A stretch of 64,000 bases of DNA from Raillietiella orientalis (GCA_036172245.1 JAYWIR010000088.1:1-64000); one strand, 5' to 3'. Counted from the first letter of the stretch, positions 1 to 44,270 are shown. Program-made: numbers and translations. The notes: a model not told the origin generated them from the letters alone.

Positions 1-3000
1 GCGCGGGAGATCGAATGCATCTCCGGAGGGCGGCTGTGGTATCGGTGTGGAACATCGAGAAGTTGTGGTGTCGCTTACCTTCTTCGGCCCGTCATCGAGG
101 CCGCCGTCCTGGAGTTCGGTTCGACGATCACGGTCGTGTCGGCCAGCTGACTCTTAGCTGGTCCGACTCTATCGACCTGATCCTGACGAACGTTGACGCC
201 TCGAGCGGAGCGGACCTGACAAACAGGAGGTTCAGGTAAGAATTTTTCCTTCTTCTCCATCGCGACTGGTTGACCGAGGCAGGCGTGCGGAATGCCCATC
301 TGGTTGCAGGCGATTTTAAAGTTCCTCTGAAACCGGATGGGCCGAATCACGAGCGGGACCTGGTCAACGAGGTGTGCGCGGCGGTGCACACTTGTAATTT
401 GTTGGCCAGTGTACCAGGGATGGAGGACAACATCGATCACGTGTTCCTTGACGAGCACCTGTGCACTCGTGTGGTCAGGCGCTGCAAGTTACCGTGCAAG
501 TTGTCCGACCATCGACCAATCGTGATTGAAATCATTCCGCGCGACAAGGGCCCCCCCTTGTCAGCGTGGCGTTTTCCAGGGGAATGGCTGAAGCTCCCGG
601 ACGCGACGGAACATCTCCGCACGTTTTTACGGAGCTTCAGGATGCAGACACTCCAGGATTGGGACCACTTCAAACGGTCGGTCCAGGAGTTCTGTGAGCA
701 GTTCCCTCTGCACCGCCTACCTGCGGGATTTGGGGACGGGGTACGTAACGAACGAACCTATCTGCAGGCTCGCCGTTACGCCAGGACCCCTGACATCCGC
801 AGGATGGCGGAATACAAAGGGGGAGCCGAGAGGCAAGCCTGGCAGTCAGGATCGGCCAGCTTGCTGGACGATCAGGGCCAGGAGCATTCGGCACCCGCTC
901 AGATCCGCGGTCTGCTGCTGCGTTTTTATTCCTCCCTGTACGCAAGAACGCCTCCCGTGCGGGATTTCTCACAACTCCTGCTTTCAAAAGGCGCTCCTGG
1001 GATCGGGAAGGAGCAGAGAAAGACCCTCGACGAGCCTTTCACGATGGACGAGATCCTCTCGGCCATCAAAAAGCTCAAATGGCGAAAAGCTCCAAAGGAG
1101 GACGGCCTGCCCGCGGAGTTTTATCAAACTTTCGCGGCTGAGCTTACTCCCCTGGTACAGCAACTCACCTTGCTGATACGCGAAACAGGTGACGTTCATG
1201 CCTCGTTTCGTTAGGCAAAGGTGCGGCTCCTCCCTAAGGGAGGAGATCTGAGGAGCATGAACAACTGGCGTCCCATCACAATAGTGAATGCGGACGCCAT
1301 GTTGGTGGCTAAGGTTTGGGCAGAGCGTCTGGGACGGGTCGCCAACATCTTCATCAGCTCGGAACAGACATATGCTGTTCCCGGACGAAGTATGGAGGCG
1401 AACCTGTTCCACGCTTCCACCTGGCTAGAGCTCCAACACGAAAGGGGCTTGATGCGCACCGGGAATTCCGTTGAGTCCGTTAGTCATGCGACGGATGGTC
1501 GGATGTGGGAGGGAGCACTTGCTGTCGTTGTCGACTTGCGTAAAGCATTCGACAGCGTCGACGACAACCTCTTGTTAGAGCTTTTGGAACGCATGGGCTT
1601 CCCGACCTCATTATTGGCCTATCTGCGCTCTTGCTGGCGCGATTCGCAAGTCAATGTTACCTTCAGCGGGCATACTGTTCATGGCGTGGTTGTGCGACGT
1701 TGGATCCGGGAAGGAGACAGCCTGAGCCCCTTGCTCTTCAGTACCCACTTTGAGTTGGTACTGAGAGTGTACAGGGAAACACTGGCGCACCTGCCGCATG
1801 AATGCGCCGGAGCGCCTGCGGTTTCAGCATATGCGGACGACCTCCTGCTAGTGCTCCCTATGTCCACCCCGGCTTCGGCGTTCGACTAGTTCTTCGACCT
1901 GCTGAATCGAGGAACCAGGCTTACGGTGAACAGGGCGAAGTCGTCCGTGATGCCAGTTGGTGCGGCGTGGTCAGGGCAGCAGGACTGGGTCCGTTTGGGG
2001 ATCCCCATGGTGAGGTACTAGAAGAAACTTGGTGTGCCTTTGGGGGACTACTCCCCTGCGTAAGCGTGATCCGGCTGCCTTCAAAAAGTAGAGACGGCTA
2101 TCGGCCCGTTCCGAGGCGGCAGGTTTTTTTTGCCTGAGCGGGCCGCGGTTGAGAAAATGTTCGCAACTCCTCTCCTCCGTTCCCTGCTTTTTGTTTGGCC
2201 CCCCCACAGAGAGGATCAAAAAGCGGACGAAGGACCTCCTCCGTATCGCCCTTTGTGGCAACGGGAGGGCACGAGTCCGCTTTAAGGACTTGTGCGCTCC
2301 GCTTCGGGACGGTGGTTTAGGCCTCCTGACATTGGAGCGGCTGGAGCTGCAGCTCCAGTTCCGGATTTTTGCACTTGTGCCGGAGTTGTGGTGCACCGGT
2401 TGGTGCGTCCCTGCACGTCTCCTTTTCAGCAAGCCACCGGCAAGACGGGACTTACGTCGTTTCTTGCACTCCATCGAAGCCGCATCAACCGATGTGGTCT
2501 TCAGCTACGGAGGGTGGCTACGCTGGCAAGGAAACATCAAGGATGGATCACCTGTCTCCCCGCGAACGGTAGTTTCTGGTTGCAGGAAACCGTTCGCACG
2601 TGGGGACAGTTCGGCATGCAACCCTCCCATGAGGAACGAAGGTTCCTGTTTGGGTGTTACAGAAGTTGCACGCTCCGTGAGATCCTGGAGGATCCTAAGA
2701 ATCGAGCGTGGTCAGGAAGAACCCCCCTCTCTGCTGCGCTGGACTCCCTAGTGGAACATCAGGACAGCGATGTTGCGGCGAAATGGGAGGTTACAATAAA
2801 AATCTCCGGGAAGGAGAAGAAGCAGATAGAGTGAAAGACAGGCCCGCTAACTGATGCTGCGACCCCGAGTACGCCTCCTAATGGACTTCTGCGCTGGGGA
2901 GCGCTGCTGGATGTTCCGATTGAACAACTGAAGTGGCCCCCAAGTCTTATGAACACTTCCATCCTCCCCCTAAAATGGCAAGAGTCGGCATTCCTGTTGC

Positions 3001-3430
3001 AGCACTGGGGACTCTTCTGCAACGCCCGCCGACACCACTGGACCTGGAGAGCGGTGGACCCCAATTGTGTAAGGTGCGGGGAACGGGATTCCCTCCCCCA
3101 CCTCCTTGTGGATTGTGTTGCCCTTCCGCCCTATTGGTTTTGCTTTCCGCGGCCATCGGTATCCCTTGCGGCAACCCCAGGGACGCACTAAAAGCCTTCT
3201 TCGTTGCCGACGCCCTTCGGCCAGCGTCCTCGATAGCAGCCCTGTGCTGCCTCCGTGGGATCGTCGCCGCCTGGAGCAGGACGACGGGAGGACCTGGCGA
3301 TATGGACGCCATCCAGTGCGCCTCCCAATTACTGAGGAGAGCGTCGCGATGGCCTTACCTGGATGTTCATAACAAACAAGAGCTTGTCAGCATCCTGAGA
3401 GGGATGATGCGGCCCCAGCAGCATCAGTGA
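1..3430 (+). pseudogene. ORF2 (APE-RT-zinc finger), multiple stops and frameshifts
   Basis: ORFs 270-1214, 1221-1889, 2149-2751, 2949-3191 and 2933-3430 are collinear pieces of one L1-type ORF2. Confidence 0.9.
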
Positions 3431-3647
3431 TCCCTTCCAGTTCCCTCCCACCCTTTGTTTCTTTTTGTTTAGTGTTTTTGTTTTTCCCCTTTCCCCTGCT
3501 GCCTTGGTGGATCGAACCGGTCTAGAAACCGGTGAATTGGCAGGTTCCGTGGTTCTTAGCTTCTGGCTGGAGCATTGCCACAGCCATTAATAATTACTTT
3601 ATAAAGTTTATTTTTTAATAAACGACCCGGAGAAATCCGGGTGAAAA
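1..3647 (+). mobile_element. Tx1/L1-clade LINE, family C-like; ORF2 plus 3' UTR, 5' part outside the window
   Basis: Broken frames give APE (HLVAGDFK, IDHVF, LSDH), RT (WRPIT, DLRKAFD, REGDSLSP, AYADDLL), GGLG and NCVRCGERDSLPHLLVDC. Stop at 3430. Ends AATAAACG-ACCCGGA-GAAA-TCCGGGT-GAAAA. Confidence 0.93.
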
Positions 3648-4023
3648 TCGAATGCTTTGTGCAAATCGACCGCGACGGCAAAGGCTCCCGCCGAGTCCGT
3701 CCTATCCTCTGCATGATCTTCTTGGTCAGAGGGGCGCGCGAGGCTCCCTTGACCATCCTGAGCAACGCGTTGTCGCAACTGCCACCATGAGCTGACGAGG
3801 AGCAGTTTCGCCTCCCTGGCAGCAAAACTTCTCGCTGGAGGCGAGGGACGATCGGTGCAGGCTTTCACTCCTCCCGAAGAAGGTCCTGCGACGCAAGGGG
3901 ATTCCTCCACCTCTATTTCTGCGTGCCCTGGCTTCATTTTCCTCGGAAAAGAAACACCACACCCAAAAGGAACAGCCGCAAAGAAGCACCAAAGGCGAAG
4001 CGCAAGAATGCACGTCCGAACAA
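3648..4023 (-). mobile_element. Internally deleted LINE: 5' UTR and ORF1 start fused to an RT fragment, interrupted at the KAFD motif
   Basis: Starts TTGTTCGGACGTG (5'-end motif). ORF1-type 'RSFAA' runs into RT 'EAKLLLVSSWWQL...AVAVDLHKAFD'. Confidence 0.7.
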
Positions 4024-4040
4024 TGGACATGGTCGGCTCT

Positions 4041-4200
4041 TTGTCACTCGGGTGCGCCAAGTCGTTTATTACAAACTATCCGGGAACAGAGTTCAAGGAC
4101 AAAAAGAAAAACAAGATACGAAGGGGGTGGGATCCCCGACACGCAGGTTGGTATGCTGAAAGTCCGGAACGGGTAGGAGGGGAACACAAATACACTACTA
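4041..4200 (-). mobile_element. Isolated LINE 3' UTR fragment with terminal hairpin
   Basis: Minus strand ends AATAAACGACTTGG-CGCAC-CCGAGTGACAA after a T-rich tract. Confidence 0.65.
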
Positions 4201-4652
4201 GAGGGAACTGCGGAATGTCAACTGTTGGAATGTCAAAGGCTTGCGCGACGACGGTGACAGGCGAGATACATCCGACACCTTGCGGGAGTTCGACCTGTCC
4301 CTGTTGCAGGAGATCCACGTGATCACCTCGGCAGACGTCCAGGAGATCGAAACGATCGAGCGGTGTCTGCTGTACTGGCAATGCGGCATCCGCAACACCT
4401 GCGGGGTCGAGTTCTTCGTGAAGCAGGCTATCGACGCTGCCGTGAACGGCGTCCGCTTCGATTACGACGGTCGGGTGAGTCAACTGCTTCTCGGCTGGTC
4501 CGACTCGAACGATCTGATCGTCACGAATGTGTACGCCCCAACCGGTCAAAAGGGATACAGCAACAGTACCAGGTTGCTTGAATCCCTCAAGCGCGACTGG
4601 CTGGCCAACACGAACGTGCGGAAGCCTCACCTGATAGCGGGAGATTTCAATC
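4200..4652 (+). pseudogene. Family D APE, N-terminal half (host of the family A insertion)
   Basis: CWNVKGL...DLSLLQEIHV...NVYAP...HLIAGDFN; homology stops exactly at GDFN. Confidence 0.88.
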
Positions 4653-4730
4653 GAGTGCGGACGTGTTTTTCTTCGCTCTCGTCTCCGTGCTTTCATCCGC
4701 TTCATCTTGGCGTCGTACATTTTGACGACG

Positions 4731-6650
4731 ATGTCGACCCAACCCGAAGCTACTGAAGTTGGAGGAACAGCATCCGGATCTGCAATCGCGGAACCGAAGG
4801 CCGCCTCCACTTCGTCTTTCTCGCCAATGGAGAGGAGTTTTGCTGACGTTGCTGCCACAGCAGCCGTCAAAGGGAGACCACTCGACGAGTCGGAGTTGCG
4901 GGCATACGTAGCCCAAGGCTATCGACCTGCTCTCCGATATAAGGTGAGTGGTTTTCTTTCTGCGCGCGAAAGGAATCAGTTCAACGATGAACTGAACCGT
5001 GTTGGCGTGCGGGAGGAGGACCTCCTCGCCATTATGCCTGTAAAGGATATGGGCTATTTCAAGGTGCGTTGCAAAGACGCTGCACTTGTGCAACGCTTGC
5101 TGCGCACCCCGTTGTCGATCCGTGGCCAGAAGGTCTTCCCGGCCGCCATGGACGACTCATTTGTGGCGGAGATTTTCGACATCGAGTCCGAAATCTCCGA
5201 TATTGATATTCGGAACGCTTTGGCGAAATTCGCCACGGTCCATGCGCGGTAAAGGGTGCGTAGCAACCTCAAGGACCTCCCGTCCATACACAGCAGAGTC
5301 GCTGGAGTCCGGCTTACAATGCCGGACCGCCGTCTGCTGCCCACCAAACTACAGGTGAAAGACACGGTCGTTCACCTGTAGTTCGTGGGCAAAGTAAGAA
5401 CGTGCGAGCAATGCGGAAAGGAGGGGCATTGTTTGGATAAATGCCCCTCTGGAAAATGCCGTTATTGCAAACTATCAGGGCACCAATTGGAAAATTGCCC
5501 GGATCTTTTGCGAAAAAGGCAGCCGCGGAGCTCCATCTTAAAAAACAAAGCGCGGATACAAAGAAAAAATCAGCGAAAAACCTGGAGACCCCACGGCACA
5601 AATTCGGTAAAAACGGGAGGCGGAATGTCGCCCCAAAGCAGCAGGAAATTTCGCACGCGAAGCCCTGCGCGCCCCCTCTAGCGGCAGGGAGCCGCAAAAG
5701 AAAGGGTGCGGGGAATCCGGGGCAATGGTAAGTCCCCCTAGGCGCAATAGCAGTCCTTCCCAAGCACGCCCGGCTCTCTCGGAGTTCGAGCAACCGGCGG
5801 GGACACCAATGGACAACGGCGGTAAGGACATTTCCAGTAACGTCAGTTCCATTCCTTCATCCCCTGCAGTGGCTGAGAAGCCCAAATCGGGTAAGAAGGG
5901 TTGTGCCGTGTCGACTTCGAAAGTCGGCAAAATAAATCCGCGTCGCGATCCAACACCGCGAAAGCGGAGAAACATCTCACGGCGTCGCAGTCGGAGAGCA
6001 AGCTCTCGACTGGCGCGGATGCCATGACAACGCAGGGATTAAAAGCCCTTCCGAAGGTAGGGTGCATGACGAGCGTGTCGGAGCCATCGAAAGTGCTCCC
6101 GTCCAAAGACGCGGATGGCCTCAAAGATGGCAATGGAGCACAATCTCCATTTACGGCGCCACGCAAAGTGAGGAACCGTAATGAAGTAAAGAAGACTTCA
6201 GCAAGGGTCCCTCGTGGAACTGCGCGTGAGCACGCTGAAAACGCGCGCGCCGGGAAAGCAGCCGTCACAAAAAGCGATGCTCTGGTAACGGAAAACGACA
6301 ACACGACAGCTGTCAATCCAGCAGAACCTGTCACTACTTCGCGGAAGGCCGAAACCCGATCGAACATGCGCCGGTCGGACTCCGAAATGGATGCCGTACC
6401 GATCACCGAGACGAGGACAACTCGTTCGAAAGCGTGTGCGCGCCGATCAAAAGTAGGCAGCCAGGCAACGCTCGCCGCGAAGCAACGCGAAGTCTCCACG
6501 AAACCCGACGGGGTTAAGCCTGGCGTGGAGGCATTACATGCATGCAGCACCACAGAGGACGGTGGCGACCGTCCCCTCCAGCCAGTCGTGCTGCTCGCCG
6601 TCTGATCGCCGGAAGAAGGGAGCACAAAGCCGCCACCTTCCCAGCAGTAA
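4731..6650 (+). pseudogene. ORF1 (gag-like nucleic-acid-binding protein, two CCHC knuckles), disrupted
   Basis: RSFADVAA and LVQRLLRTPL N-terminal domain; CEQCGKEGHCLDKC and CRYCKLSGHQLENC; K/S/A-rich tail ending SQQ-TAA at 6648-6650. Confidence 0.88.
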
Positions 6651-9600
6651 TGCATGGAATCGCGTCTTCTCGTCGTCTGTCCGTAACGTGTTGAAACGTG
6701 AACGGACTACAGAACGACGAGAAGAGGCGATTAGTAGCCAACGCCCTGCGCCCCTTCGACCTGGCACTCCTGCAGGGGATTCACGTAATCTCGGACGTGC
6801 AGGCAGCCGAAATCGAGGAGCGCGCAGGCGGAACGCTACATTGGCGGTGCGGCGGCGCACGCACGTGCGGCGACGCGCTCCTCGTAAGAGGAAAGATGGC
6901 GGAAGCGGTGCGTAGTGTTCGTATTGATGACGACGCACGGATAGGCCAGCTTGTCATCAAGTGGTCCGAGTCCATCGATCTCGTCGTTAGGAACGTCTAC
7001 GTGCCGAATGGCATTCGCTACCTCGAAGAAAGAGTACCTTTCTTTGGTGAGGTGCAGAGCCACTGGCTCAACAACATTGGCTTCCAATTGGGGCACCTTG
7101 TTGCTGGGGACTTCAACGTCCGCCTGCTCTCCGACGATTGGAGCCGCCCGAGGGACCGCGCGCTGTCCATCGTGATGTGCGCGTCCGTGCATGCCGCCAA
7201 CTTGATGGTCAGCGAACCTGGAATGGAAAGATCGCTCGATTACGTTTTGCTCAATGAAAACCTGCATTCGCGCGTGGGAAGGACAGGAAGATTGCTGACT
7301 AGGCTTTCTGACCACCACAGGTGTGAGTTTGAGATTCTTCCGCCAGGCAGGGGGCCTCCGTTGCAAAACTGGAGGATGCAGGCACATTGGCTTAGCCAAC
7401 CAAAGGCTGCGGAGCATCTACGTGGACACCTCCGAGGATTTGCCATTCAAGAACTTGCGGACTGAGACGATCTCAAAAGATCTGTCCGCGAGATTTGCTG
7501 CCAATTCCCCTTGTACCAGCTTCCATGCGGTTTCGGAGAGGGCGTGGCCAACAGTAGAGACTTTCTGCAGGCCCGCACGTTTTCGAGACGCGCGGATGTC
7601 GGGCGTCTCGCAGAGTACAAGGCGAGGGCCGAGCGCCAGGTCTGGCAGTCCGGAGCAGCATGCCTGTTGGACGACAAGGGCTAGGAATGTTCGGCCCCAG
7701 CCGAAGTACGCCGCATTGTGAGACGCTACTACTCCTCGCTGTACGCGGAATCCCCGACGGAGGATATTCTTTCTGAGATACTCCTGTCTCAGGATGCTCG
7801 TGTTGTCGGCGAGGAGGAACGCGAACGTCTCAACGAGCCCTTCACGCCGGATGAAATTTCGTCCGCCATCGCTGGGCTGAAGAGACGAAAGGTGCCAGGC
7901 GCTGATGGGCTCCCTGCAGAGTTTTATCAGTGCTTTGCAGTGGAGCTCATTCCCTTGATGCTGAGACTCGCAACGCTGATGAGTGAATCCGGGAATGTCC
8001 CGGATTCCTTATGCTCAGCGAAGGTGCGTCTCCTGCCGAAAGGCGGAGACTTGCGTCAACTTAACATCTGGCGCCCGATCACCTTAGTAAACTCGTACGT
8101 CAAGTTGTTTTCCAAGGTGTGGGTCGCGCGGTTAGGAAGTATCGCGGAATCTGTGGAGAGCCCGTAACAAACCTACGCGGTTCCGGGACGATCCATGGAG
8201 GCGAACGTCCTTTTCGCGCGTACATGGATGCAGCTGCAGGAAGTTGTGGCGCAGCAAAGCCATGCTGCTGCGAAAGTCACTGCCGCAGGCAAGAAGAACA
8301 GGCGCCGACGGCAGGAGGCAACGCCAAGTGCCTTGGTGGTCGCGGTCGTTCTCCAGAAGGCGTTCGACTGCGTAAACCAGAAGCTGCTTTTGGAGCTTAT
8401 AAAACGCCTTGGGTTCCCGGTGCAACTCCTGCTGTATTTGCGCGCGTGCTGGCGCCACGCGCTTACCTGCACCACTTTCAGCGGCTGCCGCATGTAAGGT
8501 ATTCCCGTGCGTAGGGGCATCCGACAGTGCGACAGCTTCAGCGCTTTGCTCTTCAGTATCTTCTTTGAGTTGGTGCTTAGAGCATACAGGCTGACGCCGT
8601 CTCACTTGCCTAGCTCCTGCCCGGGAACGCCTGCCGTGGCCGCCTACGCTGATGACCTGCTTCTTCAGCTCCCCATGTTCACCCCGGCGTCCAGTGTCGA
8701 GGATTTCTTCGACCTGATTCGTCATGGAACGGGCGTGAGCGTGAACAGAGAGAAAAGCGTGGTCGTTCCTGTGGGTACGTCGTGGGAGGAACAGTCCGAC
8801 TGGATCCGCCTGGGGATCCCCACGAGCGGGTACCTTAAGTACCTTGGCGTTCTGTTGGGCGCTTACGGCGCAGCCGATGCGTGGGCGGACTATCTTCAGA
8901 AAGCAGAGTTGGCCATCAGCCCGTTCCTTAACGGCAAGTTTACCTTGCAGGAACGGGCGTCTATTTGGAACACCTTTGTGGCCCCCCTCCTCCGTCCCCT
9001 GTTTTTTGTTTTGGCCCCCTCTATGCGGCGAAACAGCGGGCTGAACACCTGCTCTGGAACGCTTTCTGGGGTCCGGCTAGTTCCAGGTTCTGCCTTAAAG
9101 CTTTGTTAGCTCCGCGTCGAGATGCTGGTTTGGGTATCCTGACAATGGAGCGAATCGGACTGCAGGTGCAGTTACGTCTGCTGGCACTGTGTGCCCAGCT
9201 ACGGACATCTTCCCTGTGTGTGCCAGCCCGCGTTCTCCTGCGGAGATGCGCCGACAGCATAGGATTTCTCTCGCTTTTGCCGGGCACTCAATACAGGAAG
9301 CGGGGTTTCGGGTTTCCATTGCGGCAGTTGACCGCACTTCTGGAAGCTCACTTGTGGATCTCCTGCCGCCCAATGAACTTTGAAGCTTGGCGGCAGGAGT
9401 CTGTTGAATCCTGGGCGGCGTTCCAAGGAATACGCTTTGAAGATCTTCGCCCCCTGCGTCAATTTTATCCACGATCCTTGGAAGAATTACTGCAGGACGA
9501 GGTGAAGTTTTCTACCCTGGATGCCACGCGTCTTGCCGCAGCGCTGTTTGCCCTCAGGGCAAGAAACGACAGTTACCAATAGGCGAGGTTGGAGATTTCC

Positions 9601-10243
9601 TGCACGATAGCGGGAAAAACCAAAATTCCTTGGTGCCTGGAAGACGAGTGAGTTGGCGGACGCCGCCACCTCTTGTGCTGCTGCAAAGGGTCTCCTCTGG
9701 TGGGCAGAAGAACTTGCTGTCACCCCCAAAGAAGTTGTAGTCCCTTCACAGTGTATTAGCAGTTCGCTGCTCTCCCTTGCTTGGAAACAAGACGCGTTGG
9801 TTTTTGTTCACTGGAGTTTTCAGTGCAACGAGCGTTGGCATCGTGACTCCGGGGGGCTTGCGTCTGCGAACTGCGTTCGGTGCGGATCCACGTAGTCGAT
9901 TCCGCACCTACTTCTGGACTGCGGTGTCCTACAAGGACTGTGGCGTAGGCTGACAACAGCACTAATGCATCCCGTGGACATCGCAAGAGACTTGCTGCGG
10001 CGATTCTTCACGCCGAGCGGGCTGTCCCTAAGCGCAAAAATTGCAACCATCGGTTGCATACGCGCGATAGTTTCCGTCCGCCAGGCGTTGGTAATCAACG
10101 GACAGCACCAAGAGGTAATCAGCAAAGCATCCTTCCACATGGAAGCATCCGGTAGATGGCCTCATTTGACAGAGGAGACAAAAAGGAATCTCGCCGCAAT
10201 GCACCGCCGGTTTACACACGCTCAGCAGCGGCTAACCCGGTGA
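6650..10243 (+). pseudogene. ORF2 (APE-RT-zinc finger), disrupted
   Basis: NVNGLQ, LQGIH, AGDFN, LSDHH; PGADGLPAEFY, WRPIT, KAFD, GIRQCD, AYADDLL, KYLG; NCVRCGST..PHLLLDC. Confidence 0.92.
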
Positions 10244-10556
10244 TCATTGCCCTACCCTCCATAAACTAATTTTGTATTTTCTTTTCACACCCGCGTCCCC
10301 ATAGGCTCCGGAGCATTCCAGGTGGTCATCGTTTAAATCTTTGTGAGTTCGAAGCCTAACCAAAAACCCGTTACCCTTCCCTCCAGTTTTTGATTTTTGT
10401 TTGTTTTTCCTCATTCCTCATACGCTGCAAACGGTTTGTCTACCAGGCCTGCGTGCCGGTAATTTTTCTATGTTCCCTGTCGTTCTGTTGGTTGGAGACA
10501 TTGTCCCTGTCCAGTTTATCATTATTAATAAACGCTCCGGAGTGACCGGGTGATAA

Positions 10557-10899
10557 ATTTTAATCTCCGTCTGCTATCAGTTGATCCTAAAACACAAGTA
10601 AACCCTATGAACGAGATCTACGCCGCCATGCGTGCGCGCAACTTGTTCGAGGGTGAGAGGGAAATTAAGCGCAGCATCGACCACGTCTTCTTCTACGCTG
10701 ACCTGTCTTCACGGGTCGGCAAACGGGGGAAGCTTGCGTCGACGCTGTCGGACCATTCGCGGCTAATTTTCGAGATGCGGCCTCGCGACAAGGGACCGCC
10801 ATTCAGGGATTGGCGTCTACCGGGGGACTCGACGCGACTGACAAGTGCGAAGAAACACCTTTGCGAATTCCTGAGAGGCGTCACGCTCCAGAGTCTCTC
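10557..10899 (+). pseudogene. Family D APE, C-terminal half (continuation of 4200-4652)
   Basis: FNLRLL...SIDHVF...LSDH...LRGVTLQSLS, then interrupted by a minus-strand 3' end. Confidence 0.88.
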
Positions 10900-26889: not shown

Positions 26890-28466
26890 TTCTCACCCGG
26901 TCACGCCAAGGCGTTTGTTCCATATAATATAACCAAAAAACCAATTGTACAAAATAAATTAGTTAAAAACCAAACTCTTATTCGACGAATGAACAAGAAT
27001 GACGAGAATATTGCTAACACGCAGGCCAGAGTAACAGTTTTGCGAACGGTGTGGGAGGGCGGGGAACACATACAAACCAAAGTAAAATAAAAACAATGAA
27101 TTAGGAGGACGGGATAGGGGTCTTTGGGATCGCTCTGGAAGACACGGGGATAAAAGCATGGGCACCGGAAATTTTACCGAACGAACGGGGACGGGGTATG
27201 GGTAGGCGAGAGGTAACAGGGCTAACCGGATTACGCCGTTCTCAAAGGTGTGTAAACCGGCGATGTATGCCGGTGATGTCCTGATTCACCTTGTCACGAA
27301 GATGAGACCACCTTGAAGCCTTCTCCATGAATTGAGTAGCAAGCAGGTGAGTCTCCGTTCGCTGCGCTCACAACTCCAGGGCGTAGCGGGCCTTCACGAT
27401 GGCGCGAACGCAACACATGGTTGCGACAATCGCGCCAACCGAAAGTCCATTTCTGCTGAAGAAGCGCCGCAGCACATCAATGGCAGTGCCTCATTGTGGC
27501 ATGATGGCCGAAGTGAGCCTTCGCCACAGTTCCCGGAGGTCACCGCAGTCCAGCAAAAGGTGCGGAAAAGACTCGATCTCTCCGCACCTTAAACAGTTTG
27601 GCAAAGCAGCTCCCCCGGAAACGATGCTTCGCTGCCTATTACAGTGTAATGCACAATGTAAAAAGAGCAGCACATCTTGTTTCCACTCTAGGAAGAACAC
27701 GGAGCTGTCCAAACAAACGGGGAAAACCACTATCTCTTCGGAGGGCACACTTAAATGTTCGCTCCACCGAAGCAGGCCCTTCGCCCGATTCCGAGGAGTG
27801 GCGGCTTGCTGCAGCTACTTTGTCGTCCAGCTGCCGAGGAGCTTACTGACTCCCGCTATTTTGCAGGAGAACTCCCATTCCGCTGGTAGGTAACCCTCGT
27901 TGCTTGACCTTAAAGCAGACAGCGCTGCAGCGAGTGGTGTGGCGACCAGACGATCCGACATCTTGTTGTCCTGCATTACTTTCTCCATTGGTTGACTGAG
28001 GAGAAGTCGCAGGCGTCGAAGATCTTCCGGGCGCGTTCCTTCGGAAGCTGCCCACGATGAAAAAGATTCCTGCCGCCATGCATAAATGTTCATAGGGTGG
28101 CAGCAGATCCAGCTTTGGGCTTCCAGGAGTGAGGACAGCTGCCTCAGCGGGAAGGCAAACCCTATTCTGGTGTGCCGAAAGTGAGGTAGCAACGGAAGCA
28201 GTCCCTCGCTTCCCGTGCAGTGCCTCGGTATGAGGCGTGCGGGTAAGCACTACGGCGTACACCACAGCTTGGCACAGAGCCGCAGCATGCGAAACTGCAC
28301 CTGCAGTTCGATACTGTTTAAGTGGAGGATGCCCAAGCCTGCATCCTGAAGCGGCGCCACAAAGTCTTTAAGTCTAACACGATATCTTGCAGCGCCCCAC
28401 AACGCTTTGCGTAGAAGGCGCTGCGCCCAGACCTTGACTTCCTGGGTGGGTTACAAAGAAAAAACA
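26890..28466 (-). mobile_element. LINE 3' portion (probably family B): ORF2 C-terminus plus 3' UTR
   Basis: NCLRCGEIESFPHLLLDC; FPLRQL..WRQES resembles family A but the 3' UTR differs. 3' end AAACGCCTTGG-CGTGA-CCGGGTGAGAA. The family assignment is an inference. Confidence 0.85.
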
Positions 28467-31996: not shown

Positions 31997-32368
31997 TTGC
32001 GGGAGTTCGACCTGGCCCTGTTGTAGGAGATCCACGTGATCACCGCGGCAGACGTTAGGAGATCAAGACGATCGCGGGGGGTCGGCTGTACTGGCAATGC
32101 GGAGGCCGCAACACCTGCGGGGTCGTGTTGTATGTCAAGCCAACCATCGACGCTGCCGCGAAGTGCGTAACGTTTGATGACGACAGTCTGATCGTCCAGC
32201 TGATGTTCAGGTGGTCCGACTCGATAGGTTTGAGAGTGACATAAGTGTATGCCCCCAGCAACAGACAGGGCTACAGCGACCGTAACAGGTTGCTGGAAAC
32301 CCTGAAGCGCGACTCGATGGCAGACACGAATGTGCGAAAAGCTTAACTGCTAAGGGAAGATTTCAATC
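31997..32368 (+). pseudogene. Family D APE fragment ending at the (G)DFN codons
   Basis: Collinear with 4280-4652; ends GAAGATTTCAATC. Confidence 0.85.
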
Positions 32369-34835
32369 GAGTGTGGACGCGCTTTTTCGTCGTTTTTCTC
32401 TCTAGGCTGTCTTATTCCTAATGCTGATGTCGTGAACTTCGACGACGATGTCGTGCCAAAAGAAAGCCGCTGAAGTCGGAGGACCAGCACCAGGATCTGC
32501 AATGGCGGGAGCGACGGCCGTCTCCACTTCGCCTTGCTCGACAATGGCGAGAAGTTTTGCTGACGTTGCTGCCGCAGCAGTCGTCAAAGAGGGACCCACC
32601 GAGGAGGCAGAGATGCAGGCTTACGTAGCCCATAGCTATATCTACGCTCTTTGCTACCAGGTCAGTGGATTTCTTTCTGTTCGCGACGGTAATCAGTTCA
32701 ACGACGAATTGACCCCCATAAGCGTGCGGGAGGGAGACGTTCTCGCCATCATACCCATTAAGGGCCTTGAATATTACAATGTGCAATGCAAGGACGCGGC
32801 ACTTGTGCAACGCTTGCTGCGCACTCCTTTGTCCATCTCTGGTAAGAAGGTCTTCCCGTCTACCATGGATCAGTCGTTCGTGGCGGAGCTTTACGGCATC
32901 GAACCGGAAACTTCCGACCGCGAATTGCGTACTGTGTTAGCGAAATTCGCCACGGTCCATGCTATGTAGAAGGCTGGAAGCACCCTTAAGGACTTTTCAT
33001 CCATCGTCAGCAGTAGTGCCGCGGTTCGAATAACCATGCCGGACCGCTGGCTTCTACCCTCTAAGCTACAGGTGAACGACACGGTCGTTCACCTGTGGCA
33101 TGCAGGCAAGCCTCAAGTATGAGAGGGATGCGGCGAAGAGGGGCATTATCCACAAAAGTGCCCTTCTGGTACATGATGCTATTGCAAGCAATCCGGGCAC
33201 AACTTAAAGAATTGCCGGGACCTTGCTAGAAACAAAGGCAGCCGCAAAGCATCAGCGCGCTCAATACGTCGCGAAAAAGAGAAACATGGCAGAGGAAAAA
33301 CAGTGCGCACGGGCTAAGTCTCGTACCGATGCGAAGCGAAATGCCGGACAACAGCAGGGGTCCTCAACGTTGAAGCTCCTCGCGTCCCACTTAGCGGCAG
33401 GGAAGATGCAAAAGAAATGGCACGGGAGCTCAAAGAACGACTCCAGAGCTCGTGTCAGCGATCGCGGAACCTCGGTTTTTACCCAGGGGCCAACGAAGGC
33501 CAAGGGAAAAGAACCGCTAAACGGCGATCGCGGTCAAGTGCAAAATAAACATTCCACGACCTTGCCCCCTTCAAAACAAAAGAATCCAAATGGCCAAAAA
33601 AGGAAGGAGGCCTTCGTTTAGGAATTTGAAACCGGAAAAAATAATCGCTAGCCTCTTGGCAGCGCCCCTTCAGCGGAGAACCGCTCTCCGTGCGCGATCG
33701 GAGAGCAAGCTTCCGACTGACAGGGATGCGATCCCGTCGGAGAAGTCAACACCGGTCTCACAAGCAGCGCCGCTGACAGCCGAGGAGTTAACCTCATGGG
33801 TTTTCGCGGCGCAACAGGAAATCGCCTCCGAATACGGCGAGAGCGAGTGGACGGTGGTGGAGAGGAGCGGTAAGAAAAAAGCTCCAAAAAACACTCCACA
33901 GCATTCGTCGAAAGCGCTCCTGAAGGCGAGAAACTCTCGAGTGATGAAAAAGAGTCGCGCGAAAGTTCCTCGTGCAATATCGGGATCTGATGCTGACATC
34001 GAGCCAGCTGTAAAAACAGCCTCCGAAAAAAGCAATACCACATTACCAAAGAGCGCAAAAACGATCGCTGTCTAAAGAAAAGACAGCCGCTGCTCTTCGC
34101 GTGTCGCGAAGAGCGAGTCACGCGAACACCATACAGACTCCGCATCGGAGAAGGACCCGATTTCCGAACGTCGACTAACTCGTTCGGAAACGAAGGCGCG
34201 TCGCGTAAAAGCCGGCAGGCGGGAGATTCCCGCCGCGTAGCAGTTTGAATTCTTCCCAAAATCCGAGAAGGAGACACATAAGGTGGGCACCTCAACTGCA
34301 TGCAGCACGACGGAGGATGGTGGCGACCGTCTTCTCCCGCCGGTCGTGCTGCTCGCCATCCGCTCGCCGGATAAAGCGAGCAAAAAGCTACCGCCTTCCC
34401 AGCAGTAATGCGGGGAATCGCGTCTTCTCGTCGTCTGTCCGTCGCGTGTTGGAACATGAATGGACTGCAGAACGACGAGAAGAGAAGATTAGTAACCAAT
34501 GCCCTGCGCCCCTTCGACCTCGCGCTCCTGCAGGAGATTCACGTAATCTCCGACGAGCAGGCAGCCGAAATCGAGGAGCGCGCAGGCGGAACGCTACATT
34601 ACCGGTGCAGCGACGCCCACACATGCGGCGTAAAGTTCCTTGCAAAAGGAAAAATGGCGACAGCGGTGCGTGGTGTTCGTTTGGACGACGAATGACAGGT
34701 TGGCCAACTTGTCATCAAGTGGTCCGAATCCAACGATCTCGTCGTTACCAACATCTACGCGCCGAGTGGCTCTCGGTACCTCGAAAAAAGAGTTGCTTCC
34801 TTTAGTTAGGTGCATAGCCACTGGCTCAACAACTC
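32369..34835 (+). mobile_element. Family A LINE, 5' part (ORF1 32448-34408, APE start at 34408)
   Basis: Starts GAGTGTGGACG; RSFADVAA; decayed knuckles; TAATG; MRGIASSRRLSVACWNMNGLQ..LQEIH. Confidence 0.92.
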
Positions 34836-36256
34836 GGTTAACTCCTCGGCCGTCAGCGCCGCTGCGTGCGCCACCGGCGTGGACGTCTCCGTCGGGGTCG
34901 CATCCTTGTAAGTCGGGAGCTTGCTCTCCGATCGTGCGCACAAAGAACGGTTCTCCGCTGACGGAGCGCTGCTGCGGGGCGCGCGATTATTTTCTCCGGT
35001 TTTCGAATCCGGAAAGAAGGCCTCCTTCCTTTTTCGCCATTGGGCTTCTTCGTCTTTGAAGGGCGCAATGTCGTGAAATGATTATTTCTCACTTGACTGC
35101 GATCGCCGTTCAGCAGTTCTTTTCCCTTGGCCTTCTTTAAGCCCTGGTCTGAAACCGCGGTTCCGCGATCGTTGACACGAGCTGTGGAGTCGTCCTTTGA
35201 GCTCCCGCGCAATTTCTTCAGCTTGCCTGCCGCTAAGTGGGACGCGAGGGGCTTCAACGTTGAGGACCCCTTTTGTTATCCGGCATTTCGATTCGCATCG
35301 GAACGAGACTTAGCCCGTGCGCACTGTTTTTCCTCTGCCGCGTTTCTCGTTTTCGCGACGTATTTCGCGCGTTTATGCTTTGCGGCTGCCTTTTTTCTAG
35401 CAAGGTCCGGGCAATTCTTAAAGTTGTGCTTGGATTGCTTGCAACAGCGGCATTTACCAGAAGGGCACTTTTGTGAATAATGCCCTTCTTCGCCGCAACT
35501 CTCGCATACTCGAGGCTTTCCTGAATGCCACAGGTGAACGAGCGTGCCGTTCACTTGCAGCTTAAAGGGTAGAAGCCGGCGGTCCGCCATGGTTAGTCGA
35601 ACCGCTGCACTACCGCTTACGATGGATGAAAAATCCTTAAGGGTGCTTCCAACCTTCTACATAGCATGGACCGTGGCGGATTTCGCTAACACAGTACGCA
35701 ATTCGCGGTCGGAACTTTCCGGTTCGATGCCGTAAATCTCCGCCACGAATGACTCATCCATGGTTGACGGGAAGACCTTCTTACCACGGATGGACAAAGG
35801 AGTGCGTAGCAATCGTTGCACAACAGCCGCGTCTTTGCAGCGCACTTTGAAATATCTCATGCTTTTGATGGGCATAATGGCTAGAAGGTCTTCCTTTCTC
35901 ACGCCAATACGGGTCAGTTCATCGTTGAACTGATTACCGTCGCGTACAGAAAGAAATCCACTGAACTGGCAGCGGAGTGCAAGATTGTAGCCCTGGACTA
36001 CGTAGGCCTGCACCTCCTTCTCGTTGGGTTGTACCCCTTTGACGGCTGCCGCGGCAGCAACGTCAGCGAAACATCTCGCCATTGGCGAGGCAGAAGGAGA
36101 GGAGGCGGCCGTTGGTTCCGCGATTGCAGATCCTGATGCTATTACTCCCTCTTCAGTATCTTCGGGTTGGGTCGCCATCGTCGTCGGAATGCACGACACC
36201 AGGATAGAGGAAATGAAATCCAGGAGACGAATGCGAAGAAAAATACGTCCGCACTA
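34836..36256 (-). mobile_element. Family A LINE, 5' part, inverted relative to 32369-33793
   Basis: Starts TAGTGCGGACG directly after GACTTCAATC; CESCGEEGHYSQKC, CRCCKQSKHNFKNC. Confidence 0.92.
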
Positions 36257-36381
36257 GATTGAAGTCGCCCGCAATGAGGTGCGACCTTCGCACGCCCCCT
36301 TCCACCAACCACTATCGCCGCAGGGATTGAAATAACGCAGTGCGTTCATTGGCCCTGTGGCTGCCCACTGAAGCGTACAGG
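36257..36381 (-). pseudogene. Short APE fragment ending at GDFN (host of 34836-36256)
   Basis: Minus-strand translation LYAS..LFQSLRR*WLVEGGVRRSHLIAGDFN. Confidence 0.8.
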
Positions 36382-39241
36382 TTCAGCCGAAGTACGCCGC
36401 ATTGTGAGACGCTACTACTCCTGGCTGATAGCGGAATCTCCGACGGAGGATATTCTCTCTGAAATACTCCTGTCGCAGGATGCTCCTGTCGTCGGCGAGC
36501 AGGAACGCGAATGTCTAAACGAGCCCTTCACGGCGGATGAATTTTCGTCCGCCATCGCTGGGCTGAAGAGACGAAAGGCGCCAGGCGAGGATGGGCTCCC
36601 AGCAGAGTTTTATCAGTGCTTTGCAGTGGAGCTCATTTCCTTGTTGCTCAGACTCGCGTCGTTAATGAGGGAATTCGGGAACGTCCCTGATTCCTTCCGC
36701 TCAGCGAAGGTGCGTCTCCTGCCGAAAGGCGGAGACTCGCGCGAACTTAACAACTGACGTCCTATCACGTTGGTGAACTCGGACGTCAAGTTGTTTTCTA
36801 AGATGTGGGTCGCGCGATAGGGAAGTATCGCTGAAGCTGTGGTGAGCCCGAAAAAAAACCTACGCGGTTTCCGGACGATCCATGGAGGCGAACGTCCTTT
36901 TTGCGCGTACCTGGATGCAGCTGCACCAAGTCGTGGCGCATCAAAGCCTGGCTGAGGCGAAAGACGCAGCCGCAGGTAAGAAGAAAAGGCGCCGAAGGCA
37001 GGAGGGTACGACAGGTGCCTTACCGGTCGCAGTCGACCTCCACAAGGCGTTCGACTGCTTAAACCAGGGGCTCCTCTTGGAGCTTCTGGAACGCCTTGGA
37101 TTTCCGGCGCATCTCCTGCTTTACTTGCGCTCTTGCTGGCGCCACGCGCTATTCTTTATTACTTTCAGCGTCTGCCGCGTGTACGGTATTCCCTTGCGCA
37201 GGGGCATTCGACAAGGTGATAGCTTAAGACCGTTACTCTTTAGCATATTCTTTCAGTTGGTGCTTAGAGCTTACGGGTTGAAGCTGTCTCATTTTCCAAG
37301 CTCCTGCCCGGGAACGCCTGCCGTGGCCGCCTACGCTGATGACCTTCTTCTCTTGCTCCCCATGTCCACCCCGGCGTCCAGTGTCGAATATTTCTTCGAC
37401 CTGGTCCGTCGGGAGCGAACGAGTGCGTGAACAGCGAGAAGAGCGTGGTCGTTCCGGTGGGTGCGTGGTGGGAGGGGCAGTCAGACTGGATCCGCCTGGG
37501 GATTCTCACGGGCGGGTACTTTAAGTACATTGACGTTTTGCTGGTCGCTCTCGACGCAGCCGAAGCGTGATCGGACTGCCTTCAGAAAGCAGAGCTGGCC
37601 GTCAGCCAGTTCATCAACAGCAACTTTACCTTGCAGGAACGGGCGACTATTTGGGACAACTTTGTTGCCCCCCTCCTCCGTCCCCTCTTTCTTGTTCTGG
37701 ACCCCTCCTATGCGGCAAAAAAGCGGACTCAACGCTTGCTTAGGAACGCTATCAGGGGTCCAGCGAGATTTAGGATCCGCCTTAAAAACTTGGCTACACC
37801 ACGTCGGGATGTTGGTTTGGGTATCCTGACAATGGAGCGAATCGGACTGCAGGTGCAGTTCCGACTATTGGCACTGTGTGCACAGCTGTGGACATCCCCC
37901 CTGTGTGTGCGTGCACGCCCTCATGCGAAGATGCGCCGACAGCAGAGGACTGCTCTCGCTTTTGCCGGGCACCCAATACAGGAAGCGAGGTTTTGGGCTT
38001 CCATCGCGGCAGTTGACCGCACTTCTGGAAGCCCATTCGTGGATCTCCTGCCGCCCAATGAACTACGAAGCTTGGCAGCAGGAGTCTGTTGAATTCTGGG
38101 CAGCGTTCCAATTAATGCGCCCTAAAGATCTCCGCCCACTGCATTATCTTCTTTCGCGATCTTTGAAAGAAGAATTGCAGGTCGAGTTAAAGTTTTCTTT
38201 CCTGGCTGCCACGCCTCTTGCCGGAGCGCTGTCTGCCTTCAAGGCAAGAAGCGACAGTTGCCAACAGGCGAGGTGGAAGGTTTCCTGCACGATAGCAGGG
38301 AAAACAAAACTCCTTGCCGCCTGAAAGACGAATGATTTGGCGGACGCCGCCACTCCTCGTTGTACTTCAAAGGGACTTCTTCGGTGGGCAGAAGAACTTG
38401 CTGTCACCCCCGAAAAACTTGTAGTCCCTTCACAGTGTGTTGACAGTTTGCTGCTCCCCCTTGCTTGGAAACAAGCCGTGCTGCTTTTCTTGCACTGGGG
38501 TTTTCAATGCAACGAGCGTTGGCATCGTGACTCCAGGGGGCTTGCATCTGCGAACTGTGTTCGGTGCGGTTCGACGGAGTCCAACCCGCACCTACTTCTG
38601 GACTGCGGTGTCCTACAAGGACCGTGGCGTAGGCTGGCAACAGCCCTAATGCATCCCTTGGACACCGCAAAAGACTTGCTGCGATGATTCTTCACGCCGA
38701 GCGGGCTATCCCTAAGCGCAAGGATTGCAACCATCAATTGCATACGCGCGATAGTTTCAGTCCGCCAGGCGTTGGTAATCAACGAGCAGCACCAAGAGGT
38801 AATCAGCAAAGCATCCTTATACATAAAAGCAGCCGCTAGATCGCCTAATTTGACAGAGGATTCAAAAAGGAATCTCGCCGAAACACACCGCCGGTTCACA
38901 CAAGCTCAGCAGTTTCCAACCCAGTTATCATTGCCCTACCCTCCATGAACTAATCTTGTATTTTCTCTTCACATCTACCTCCCAATAGGCTCCGGAACAT
39001 TTCAGGTGCTCCCCGTTTGAATCCCCGTGAGTACAGAGCGTAACCAAATACCCGTTACCCTTCCCCCTAGTTTTTGATTTTTGTTTGTTATTCCCTTATT
39101 CCTCCTACGTTGCGAGCGGTTTGTTTACCAGGCGTGCGGGCCGGGAATTTCTCTCTGTTCTCTGTCGTGCTGTTGGTTGGGGACATTGTCTCTGACCAGT
39201 TTATTATTATTGAGAAACGCTCCGGCGTGACCGAGTGTCAA
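36382..39241 (+). mobile_element. Family A LINE, 3' part (RT to 3' end)
   Basis: Collinear with ~7690-10556; DLHKAFD, GIRQGD, AYADD; ends AAACGCTCCGG-CGTGA-CCGAGTGTCAA. Confidence 0.93.
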
Positions 39242-39590
39242 ACTTCAACGTCCGCCTCCTGTCCGGCGTTTGGAGCTGCCCCAGGGAGAGCGCGCTGCTT
39301 ATCGCCATGTGCGCGCCGGTGCAAGCCGCCAAATTTATGGTCAGCGAACCTGAAACTGAAGGATCGCTCGATTACGTTTTCCTCGATGGAAATCTGCATT
39401 CGCGTGTGGTTAGGAGTGCAAGATTGTTGACTAGGCTTTCTGACCACCACAGGTTGGAGTTTTAGCTCCTTCCGATAGGCAAGTGGCCTCCCTTGCGAAA
39501 GTGGAGGATGTAGGCGGATGGGCTTAGATATCCGGAAGCTGCGGAACATCTTCGTGAACACTTATGAGGCTTTAGCATTCAAAGATTCGC
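39242..39590 (+). pseudogene. Family A APE, C-terminal half starting at DFN
   Basis: FNVRLL..SLDYVF..LSDHH..GFSIQRF, homologous to ~7110-7460. Confidence 0.88.
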
Positions 39591-42500: not shown

Positions 42501-42926
42501 TCTCCAAACCCTGCAGGCAGGTGTTACACATGGATGCCATCGCAAAACTCTCGGACCAAGCGTTTGAAACGGTCCCAGTCCTAAAGCGTCTGCAAGCGGA
42601 AAGCTCGTATGAATCCTCGGAGATGTTCCGTGGCCTCCGGAAGTTTAAGCCACTTCCAAGGAAAACGCCACGCAGTAGACGGGGGAACTCTGTCGCGCGG
42701 ATGGATCTCGAGAACTATCGGGCGATGGTTCGAGACAATCGACATGGTCTATGGTGTCAAACCACCTGATGGCCAGCTGCCCGATGCGACCGGCACTATC
42801 AAACCGCACGCCCTTTGCCGCGGCCTCCACAGCTGGCCGAATCAGGAACGCAACACCGCGACTCTTGGGTTTCCCACACCTATACCATAGCCGCCCTCCG
42901 GAGATTCGTTCGATCTCTTGTGCTCG
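39591..42926 (-). mobile_element. Family C-like LINE (mosaic): 3' UTR, RT, partly deleted APE
   Basis: 3' end AATAAACGCTCCGG-CGGAA-CTGAGTCAGGA; NCARCGE; GIRQGNSLSP, AYADD. APE deletion at ~42745; truncated at AQEIER. Confidence 0.9.
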
Positions 42927-44270
42927 CACAGTGCAGACGGGATTTCGCGTCTCTACGCGTCCGCGATCGAGCATCTTCGTGAGTGCGTTTTGGCTCGCAC
43001 TTGTGTGTTTCTTCGAAGTCGACCAAGCAGCGTTGTGCAGCATGGCCACTTCTAAGAATGGTGTGGAGGAGACGGCCGTTGAATCCGATTCAATTGAAAT
43101 GGAAGCGGCCGCATCCTCCATGACGGTTTCCACGCCTTCGGTGAGAAGCTACGCCGCCGCCACCTTCCAGGGAGCAGGTACCTGCGATGCGGAGTTGCAG
43201 GTTTCTGTGGCATCCGGATACATGCCCGCACTCCGTTATAAGGTCAGTGGGCCCCTTAACGGGAGGACCGGGCGTGAGCTCAACGATGAGCTCCTCCGGA
43301 ACGGCGTTCGGGAATAGGAGGTCCTTGCCATCACGCCTGCGGGCAGGAAGGAATACACCAAGATACGGTGTAAAAACGCGGCACTGGTGCAGCGCTTTCT
43401 CCGTACTCCGTTGTCCATCGTTGGCAAGAATGTCGTGCCATCCGTGATGGACGACTCGTTTGTCGTCCAAATGTGCGACATCGAGCCGGAAATCTCCGAC
43501 CGCGATGTCGTAAGTGTGCTGGCGGAGTTCGCCACCGTGCACGCTCTGTGGAGGAGGTGAAATCCTCTAAAGGATTTCCCCTCTGTCCACAATGGACAAA
43601 CCCCCGCGCGGATCACCGTCGCGAACAGGCGTGTTGTGCGTGAGCAGCTGCAGGTGAACGGCACGGTCGTTCACCTGTGGTTTCTAGGACAGAGTCGCGC
43701 GTGCGAGCAATGCGGCAAGGAAGGAAACCAAATGAAGAAATGTCCCACCCCGAAATGCCGCTACTGCAAAGAAACCGAGCACGAAATAAAGTACCCGGTC
43801 CTCGCAAAGAAAAGGGCAGCAGGGGAAGTTCGTCGCGTTCAAGATACCAACGCACGAAAGGCCGCTGCCCCAAAGAAAAAACAGTGTCCGCGGAGTCTTC
43901 GCAAAAGAGACAAGCAATACGCGGCTATACAAAAGGCGTCCCCGCATGCAACGCCCTTAAAGGGAGGAATCACGGCAAGGAAGCGAATTAAAAAAAGGAG
44001 CGAGGGCTCGACGCGTGCCGTGCTCGCTCTCGCTGCCGTACTCGGAAGCATTTCTCCAAGCTAGGAACCGGGAAATTTCCGAAGACCCTCGGTAGGAAAG
44101 GTAGGAGAGCCTGAAGATCGCCACAGGGCGAATACTTCCTGCTCGAACTTGCTGTCCCTTTCGAAATCGGCAAAGTCCCAATCATACGCAGGGGCCTCTG
44201 CTGCGGCTACGAAACCCGTAGCAAGCAGCGGCGCGCCGCGCAAAAACGCTTCCATTCGGTTGCTCGGCCT
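42927..44270 (+). mobile_element. Family B LINE, 5' UTR plus partial ORF1
   Basis: Starts ACAGTGCAGACG; collinear with ~13708-15050; CEQCGKEGNQMKKC, CRYCKETEH. Confidence 0.9.

Follow-up and report, generated by a model that had tools for sequence, protein, structure and literature searches.

Why do the ends of retrotransposons from several families lie, again and again, at the same few codons of one another's endonuclease genes? The question is raised by a 64-kb stretch of Raillietiella orientalis DNA (GCA_036172245.1, JAYWIR010000088.1:1-64000), referred to here as the window, which constitutes the entire evidence base of this analysis and in whose coordinates the element copies are numbered. 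Positions 1-44250 are a nest of at least 20 fragments derived from related long interspersed nuclear elements (LINEs) that encode an apurinic/apyrimidinic endonuclease (APE) and a reverse transcriptase (RT). The nest holds at least five related families, A, B, C (with its relatives F and D'), D and E, along with the fragments X, G and H. Here, we describe the clustering of insertion points in this nest at three homologous places of the APE-coding region, and propose that it was probably built through target-primed insertion by sequence-specific endonucleases, with the families dividing among themselves the sites of a target that they encode.

Element ends in the endonuclease gene

The elements share a common build, with a CCHC knuckle in open reading frame 1 (ORF1), an ORF2 composed of APE, RT and a C-terminal Cys/His motif, and no poly(A). 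Pfam searches matched PF03372 (Exo_endo_phos, the APE domain) at 6695-7465 (E = 1.2e-08) and 25149-25778 (E = 6.8e-08) and PF00078 (RVT_1) at 1215-1889 (E = 1.7e-16), and tblastx mapping places APE upstream of RT in the order of the element. The ORF1 knuckle matches PF00098 (zf-CCHC) at 14429-15004 with 22.7 bits (cutoff 20.8); the C-terminal motif, CxxC...H...C, was seen in six copies and gives a weak match to PF13966 (zf-RVT; 19 bits, under the 27.5 cutoff), a domain present in distant database relatives. Of the features of an APE-type non-LTR retrotransposon with L1-like architecture, APE N-terminal to RT, RVT_1, a CCHC ORF1 and target-site duplication were found. At their 3' termini the elements have in common a string of about 30 nt with a small putative hairpin, ATAAACG-CCCGG-loop-CCGGG-TGA-NAA; the pattern ATAAACG-stem-loop-stem-GTG occurs at all 11 of the 3' ends in the window and an (A)n tail at none of them. 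In this shared 3' end motif the elements resemble LINEs whose RT recognises its own 3' end. The 5' ends, similar in most families, begin with C(G/T)AGTG... in families A and C and with ACAGTG... in family B. Translation revealed many LINE gene fragments, the longest ORF in 1-46 kb being 343 amino acids (aa), so that every copy is decayed. The GC content of 53-58% across most of 1-44 kb, compared with 67-70% from 56 kb onward, makes the array a GC valley.

Breaks in the elements were mapped with the intact A1 APE (6695-7465) as tblastn query and with the full-length copies A1 and C1 as tblastx queries; the sequence across each junction was inspected, and ends were located by nhmmer profiles of the conserved 3' and 5' ends. 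These profiles identified eleven 3' ends and eight 5' ends in the window, with no further end of either kind above noise; 18 of the 19 lie within 1-44270, and 11 of these sit at three homologous APE places. The first is formed by the GDFN codons, presumably encoding the catalytic Asp and Asn (LQE and SDH being taken to hold the catalytic Glu and His of such nucleases), where five ends, all of family A, are found with the insert in the sense orientation (4652, 10557, 32368, 36257 and 39242). At the second, the (R)AQEI codons, three antisense inserts end, at 13707 (B1), 26889 (B2) and 42926 (B3). The third lies 22-24 nt past the Gly codon of G(F/V)xxxxL, with boundaries ambiguous by about 3 nt, and again receives antisense inserts, at 10899 (F), 16533 (C1) and 39590 (C4). 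Six ends belong to head-to-tail pairs, where a 3' end meets a 5' end in the same orientation: G|H at 4040/4024 (15 nt between), C2|C1 at 22061/22060 and C3|C5 at 31506/31507. The one end in an RT gene is that of D' at 3648, antisense at the KAFD codons of H, and the 19th end, that of S at 52107, is outside the array and has a 3' flank that is not APE-like. An apparent junction at 32059 in the tblastn mapping was discarded because APE reads through there.

A first-pass annotation of the sequence had claimed that the termini fall at three APE codon positions or directly against another element's end, and this is borne out by 11 and 6, respectively, of the 18 ends, at matching coordinates. Its further claims, that orientation is fixed per family and that hosts cross families, also hold in the junctions mapped: family A is in sense and B and C are antisense, with A inserted into D, X and A5, C or F into D, B1 and A5, and B into F, a C-type fragment and E. 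Seven 3' junctions in the array still stand against a host body, six of them at APE sites (A1, A2, F, C1, C4 and B2) and the seventh being that of D'. With the 15 body insertions placed on a common 5.9-kb coordinate, 12 pairs fell within 12 nt of one another against 0.45 expected, a count that was never attained in 200,000 random placements; the clustering of insertion points is thus not accounted for by chance.

A1 (4652-10556, + strand) is a classical complete insertion, with both junctions, a duplication and a host frame that resumes beyond it. This full-length 5.9-kb family-A element, with ORF1, APE, RT, the C-terminal Cys/His motif and the 3' hairpin, separates the left part of D (4214-4651, +; APE aa 1-141, ending at GDFN) from the right part (10557-10898, +; APE aa 139-255, ending at the third site class). 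Its flanks, ATTTCAAT at 4644-4651 and ATTTTAAT at 10557-10564, constitute an 8-bp target duplication that matches at seven of eight positions. The family-A duplication is 8 bp, A(Y)TTCAAY, and that of family B would be about 12 bp, TCTCYTGCGCTY; the 5' flanks of B1 (host F) and of B3 (at 42925) end in this same 12-nt string, with which E, a third host, begins on the 3' side of B2. D', in the RT gene, adjoins ...CAAAGCATTCG, a sequence that resembles the C4 target ...CAAAGATTCG and points to sequence-driven cutting. A target-sequence preference, a trait of the Tx1 clade that would here be set by the endonuclease, is seen in the recurrent sites with fixed orientation.

Independent events and rival explanations

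Whether these recurrent junctions record recurrent insertions depends on the relationships among inserts and hosts. In self-comparison, A1 and A2 are 85.2% identical, B1 and B3 76% (77.1% for the inserts at AQEI) and D and D2 75%; C1 is 88%, 86% and 84% identical to C2, C3 and C4, respectively, and F and D' are 68-73% identical to the C copies (68% for F). A maximum-likelihood tree of the region from RT to the 3' end sets (A1,A2) against (D', F, (C1,C2,C3,C4)), with a C1-C4 clade supported at 100/100, the host F outside that clade, and C1 on the shortest tip branch (0.047). B2 has no sequence overlap with B1 or B3, so that it is assigned to family B by site, orientation and matching target duplication only.

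In all three site classes the hosts differ while the inserts are alike. The GDFN hosts D, X and family A are 47-59% identical in their flanks (D vs X 58.7% and D2 vs X 52.8% in the 126 nt before the motif), and their inserts are 83.9% (A5 vs A3) and 85.2% (A1 vs A2) identical; the 3' end of A2 lies at the same nucleotides as that of A1, in A5, a host of another family than D. At the third class, 300 nt of the hosts D, B1 and A5 show 50-55% identity, compared with 83.9% for the inserts C1 and C4. At AQEI, the flanks are 67.2% and the inserts 77.1% identical, and, because F falls outside the C1-C4 clade and tblastn mapping found the AQEI region of C1 unbroken, copying of a single event does not account for the B insertions that F and the C-type fragment carry. 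Judged from these comparisons, every site class evidently comprises two or more insertions that arose in place, in hosts that differ. Descent of all junctions from one ancestral event copied by duplication, which the first-pass annotation had named as an outcome that would overturn its reading, is therefore not what was found for any of the three classes.

A broader version of that explanation, in which a few ancestral junctions were multiplied by segmental duplication or by retrotransposition of composite read-through RNAs (5' transduction), such that recurrence reflects inheritance, is the strongest of the rivals, and we consider it unlikely as a general account. It draws on blastn matches that run through two junction pairs (4280-5526 vs 31997-33245, 75%; 13527-15035 vs 42746-44250, 76%), on the starts of D, D2 and X at APE aa 1, 17 and 100, as expected of 5'-truncated composites, and on the absence of the far half in most hosts. 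The X+A3 block was clearly carried along, the 5' junction D2|A5 and perhaps the 185-nt flank of B3 could likewise have been brought by read-through transcripts rather than made in place, as could X|A3, and the B3 flank may have been carried in because, at 75% identity to C1 compared with 84% for C4 elsewhere, it fits C4 less well. Against inheritance throughout stand the 3' junctions of A2, F, C1, C4 and B2 in hosts of different families, the two flanks and duplication of A1, the position of F in the tree together with the intact AQEI site of C1, and the low identity between X and D2 (52.8%) as compared with that between A3 and A5 (83.9%). Moreover, a junction that was carried along still records an earlier insertion at the same site.

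Chimeras that arose at conserved motifs, whether RT switched templates there or co-expressed LINE RNAs or DNAs recombined, are a markedly weaker explanation, which we regard as very unlikely. The GDFN motif is strongly conserved and could favour microhomology, and the 5' and 3' ends are common among the elements; however, the junctions are element ends rather than internal points, A1 has a target duplication and a host frame that resumes past a complete element, the antisense orientation of the B and C inserts is not expected of a switch between sense-strand templates, and the AQEI and third-class sites are not highly conserved in nucleotides. Weaker still, and in our estimate highly improbable, is insertion directed to a region, for example centromeric chromatin, without sequence specificity, the shared positions being due to coincidence or retention bias. 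The array is indeed a GC valley beside GC-rich DNA, and its size is comparable to that of the LINE-rich green-algal centromeres in the accounts we drew on, but the random placements do not match the clustering, orientation is fixed per family, and independent events show duplications of one length and one sequence. Misjoining of repeats at shared motifs during assembly, which the 65-88% likeness of the repeats and the joining of two internal break points at the right edge (44250) might suggest, is in our estimate equally improbable given junctions at precise element ends with duplications, copies that are 12-35% divergent and thus too different for assembler collapse, and, as weak support, contigs of a related genome that follow A1 at about 96% identity and end at the element boundaries 13707 and 10897.

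Target-primed insertion at chosen APE codons has to be weighed against observations of its own that count against it. The evidence comes from a single window in which all copies are decayed, and because of this decay endonuclease activity is not directly inferable. Five insertions lie off the APE sites (D' in RT, D in the 3' region of G, D2 in ORF1 of C5, C3/C5 in RT of B2, and S outside the array), and in many APE copies the GDFN, AQEI or third-class site is intact and received no insertion. D|A1 and D2|A5 could represent one event because their host and insert divergences are similar (a 75% shared blastn match; 75.2% for the host and 65.3% for the insert). For family C, the nucleotides upstream of the nick differ much among the three hosts (CAGAGTCTCT, AGTAAGCTCG and CAAAGATTCG), and the downstream host half, where intact copies conserve AGGACTGGGACC, is absent in all three. 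Covariation in the 3' hairpin is slight, with a double (compensatory) change in one of five pairs, so our claim concerns conservation of its sequence, the fold itself being putative. Finally, the deep chain of insertions described below and the single break at 44250 are what we infer from the parse.

Layout and proposed growth of the nest

Under target-primed insertion, the endonuclease of each family would nick a specific sequence in the APE-coding region of a resident element, followed by target-primed reverse transcription. Family A would nick at the GDFN codons and enter in the sense orientation of the host, family B would enter antisense at (R)AQEI, and family C and its relative F would enter antisense at the third site, where the APE domain ends. 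Re-use of a nick by a later insertion would displace the older copy, giving the head-to-tail pairs C2|C1, C3|C5 and G|H, and the younger copy would be the one that adjoins the host half-site; in the first of these pairs, C1 adjoins its host B1 and has its full length, and C2 is truncated and interrupted. Because every insertion supplies a fresh APE gene, the target would renew itself as the nest deepens. In our parse of 4040-44250, the insertions would form a chain of about 12 levels, G>D>F>B1>C2>E>B2>C5>D2>A5>C4>B3, a depth that would follow if new insertions favour young copies with intact target strings. The far half of the host is present for D, around A1, alone, and the other hosts of the chain are seen on their left side only. 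The right edge of the array, at 44250, is formed where B3 and the unrelated element Z meet at internal points of both, a joint that is not a retrotransposition junction; one such break in the innermost element would leave all enclosing hosts open on the right, and the missing far halves may lie past the window or be lost. Telomere-style end addition was rejected, as elements occur in both orientations.

The interpretation offered by the first-pass annotation, a self-growing array with reciprocal parasitism, stands within the window as far as several families, a fixed place and orientation for each, a self-encoded target and cross-family hosts are concerned. Reciprocity is seen in part, with B in C-type elements, C in B and C in A; A in C was not seen in the window, and for the remainder "reciprocal", like "self-growing", is something we infer.

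From left to right, the array opens with D' (1-3648, +), a C-superfamily LINE that extends from APE aa 37, where it is cut by the window start, to an intact 3' end, antisense in the RT gene of H. Positions 1-12 fall at the AQEI-class position of D' (GCGCGGGAGATC...), and a B-type break there would be outside view. H (3649-4024, -) consists of a 5' end, the weakest match to the 5' profile (E = 0.0085), and an RT fragment that ends at the D' site; it is followed by G (4040-4213, -), a 3'-terminal fragment with the conserved 3' end, broken by D. Beyond the two parts of D and the intervening A1, the C-superfamily element F (10899-13706, -) adjoins D with its 3' end and is broken at its own AQEI codons by B1 (13707-16532, +), a family-B element present from the 5' end via ORF1 (CCHC) to APE aa 254. 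C1 (16533-22060, -), a full-length 5.5-kb family-C element, has its 3' end against the APE of B1 and its 5' end against the 3' end of C2 (22061-25702, -), which reaches APE aa 48 and meets E at a point some 26 nt away from the AQEI site. E (25703-26888, +) is 5'-truncated, running from the ORF1 CCHC to APE aa 41, and is broken at AQEI by B2 (26889-28480, -), which comprises the RT C-terminus to the 3' end, the latter adjoining E. C3 (28467-31506, +) is a 5'-truncated family-C copy with its 3' end against the 5' end of C5 (31507-31996, +), the first ~490 nt of another family-C element.

The right-hand portion of the array begins with D2 (31997-32367, +), a family-D fragment of APE aa 17-141 that ends at GDFN against the left part of A5 (32368-34834, +), a family-A element present from its 5' end. 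The sequence of A5 runs to 34834 (APE aa ~127) and is taken up again at 39242 (aa 138), and between these points lie A3 (34836-36257, -), the first ~1430 nt of a family-A element in reverse complement (~1430-1); X (36258-36383, -), 126 nt, likewise reverse-complemented, that encode APE aa 100-141 of a further family and end at GDFN against the 5' end of A3; and A2 (36384-39241, +), a 5'-truncated family-A copy in sense from ~3047 (RT) to its 3' end at the GDFN of A5. The inverted block at 34836-36383 beside A2 would correspond to a twin-priming topology, with an RNA starting at least 126 nt upstream in the APE of host X; this topology suggests that the sense-inserting family A may be co-transcribed with its host. 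The right part of A5 (39242-39589, +; APE aa 138-255) ends at the third site class against C4 (39590-42740, -), which runs from its 3' end to about APE aa 200. Next is a C-superfamily APE fragment (42741-42925, -; aa 36-97) starting at AQEI against B3 (42926-44250, +), the first ~1.3 kb of a family-B element. Around this joint (42711-42763), C4 lacks ~280-330 nt of APE (aa ~100-200, including the GDFN site) before the AQEI-junction fragment, which is either C4 with a deletion of ~300 nt or a flank carried in with B3.

Outside the array, Z (44250-46800, -) is an unrelated LINE (RVT_1) that lacks the 3' ~1 kb and shares 25-35% aa identity with the array families in most matched segments. About 1.1 kb past its 5' side lies a complete U4 small nuclear RNA (snRNA) gene (47890-48028, -; Rfam RF00015, 100.7 bits). 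Tx1-type LINEs are known to target snRNA genes; no element end adjoins the U4 gene in the window. S (52107-52650, -), a 5'-truncated relative that carries the 3' end motif of the array families, stands by itself, and some 70 nt beyond its 3' flank there is a string, GGGATTCGAACCC, like a tRNA T-arm; ARAGORN called no tRNA in the window. At 48000-56000 the + strand has a strong excess of T (AT skew -0.30 to -0.46), GC dips to 45% at 48-50 kb, and neither a Pfam match in eight long ORFs nor tandem repeats were found. At 56000-64000, long open frames extend in all six frames of DNA of 67-70% GC, with no Pfam match in nine ORFs, and this segment is presumably ordinary high-GC host genomic DNA.

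Relatives, known systems and significance

The RT query retrieved 22,986 database proteins at E <= 0.001, the closest of which is a 70%-identical singleton on a 2.9-kb contig; the nearest of the others, from ticks, frogs, fish and plants, are 25-32% identical, and none exceeds 36%. Searches with the A1 APE found no match among the longer database proteins, and the ORF spanning the D|A1 junction had no match in the protein search. The designation "Tx1-like" in the first-pass annotation is unproven because the lineage is isolated, with a single 70% relative and the rest at or below 36%; a "Transposon TX1" cluster at rank 22 of a protein atlas (score 0.88) is a lead, not a test. A metagenome scan with an A/B-type 3'-end pattern gave two matches on 64%-GC contigs without similarity to the window, which were taken as chance. 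Of words sampled from the window, 16% occurred in one sequencing run, possibly of DNA, and no RNA run was listed. In a related genome, eight of 146 contigs were listed, and among them are contigs 90-96% identical to A1, D, F and B1 (3500-23400). One starts exactly at the 5' end of B1 (13707) and another has its end at 10897, the family-C site of D, a pattern that is suggestive of branching at element ends and was not counted as evidence; none of these eight contigs bridges a junction by at least 31 nt on both sides.

Two components of the arrangement are already known, namely self-nesting and the sharing of one transposon target by Tx1 families. In published accounts, Zepp of Coccomyxa subellipsoidea C-169 and ZeppL-1_cRei of Chlamydomonas are L1 LINEs that insert into their own copies and form nested or tandem clusters, which are presumed to be centromeres or are bound as such. 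Nested insertion into existing copies and a localized cluster are found here as well, with an array of at least 44 kb compared with 1.5-42 kb for the Coccomyxa clusters. In the same accounts, Zepp and L1-1_CR end in (A)n, unlike the eleven 3' ends here; Chlamydomonas has a single ZeppL family, whereas at least five are interleaved here; and Zepp clusters are GC peaks (61% vs 53%) rather than a GC valley. Those accounts, as far as they were available, describe neither a codon-level target nor a fixed orientation per family, both of which are seen here; Chlorella-type centromeres contain several LINE and long terminal repeat (LTR) families.

The Tx1 clade, described as found in animals, comprises APE-type LINEs with target-specific endonucleases, such as Tx1 inserting into Tx1D, Tx1-Mar into Mariner-N4_AMi and two families into LTR retrotransposons, and the crocodilian Tx1-Mar families prefer position ~240 or ~830 of one shared Mariner (Kojima 2015, PMC4494074). 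The likeness to the present families extends to an endonuclease-chosen sequence, transposon targets and the splitting of positions in a shared target. The Tx1 targets it describes are an unrelated DNA transposon, a small RNA gene or a microsatellite, whereas here the target is the endonuclease-coding region of the LINEs themselves, including a self-hit (A2 in A5). HeT-A, TART and TAHRE at Drosophila telomeres form head-to-tail arrays, as do the pairs described here.

Among ribosomal DNA (rDNA) elements, R1 and R2 share 28S rDNA, R1 copies occur in tandem, and R2 is co-transcribed with its host gene. As in the present nest, several LINE families thereby occupy fixed sites of one renewable multicopy niche. 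The R1/R2 and telomeric niches are kept up by the cell, whereas the niche here consists solely of the elements' own genes, and each insertion destroys one target and adds another. No description of cross-family targeting of APE codons was found in a full-text literature search, which had Repbase, Higashiyama 1997 and supplements outside its scope. What sets these elements apart from the known cases is the lack of poly(A), the interleaving of families, and a target in their own endonuclease gene, which is hit at three codon-level sites and in fixed orientation.

These features might be drawn together, tentatively and with distinctly less assurance than the insertion mechanism itself, into a picture in which the LINE families form a guild whose members have no targets but one another. 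The endonuclease of each would have come to recognise its own conserved part of the endonuclease gene common to all, and among these parts is the one encoding the catalytic GDFN, which no active LINE can mutate away. The families would thus be parasites of one another in a self-renewing niche that harms no host gene. Family A would borrow the transcription of its host element, the others would enter antisense with promoters of their own, and the GC-poor array would be one of few such clusters in the genome and may serve as a centromere, as is presumed for Zepp clusters.

In the usual safe-haven view, site-specific LINEs seek rDNA, snRNA genes, telomeres or other transposons. If the interpretation proposed here is correct, the elements would instead find safety in the sequence that encodes their own catalytic domain, with competing families using separate positions in it; the conservation of this target would be maintained by selection on the parasites themselves, and it would be renewed with each insertion, with young, unmutated copies being favoured. 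As a natural experiment, the three related APE endonucleases, whose target strings are known and differ, would help to show how the APE fold reads DNA, and the process would provide a sequence-level mechanism for the building and turnover of LINE-only arrays, such as those at green-algal centromeres.

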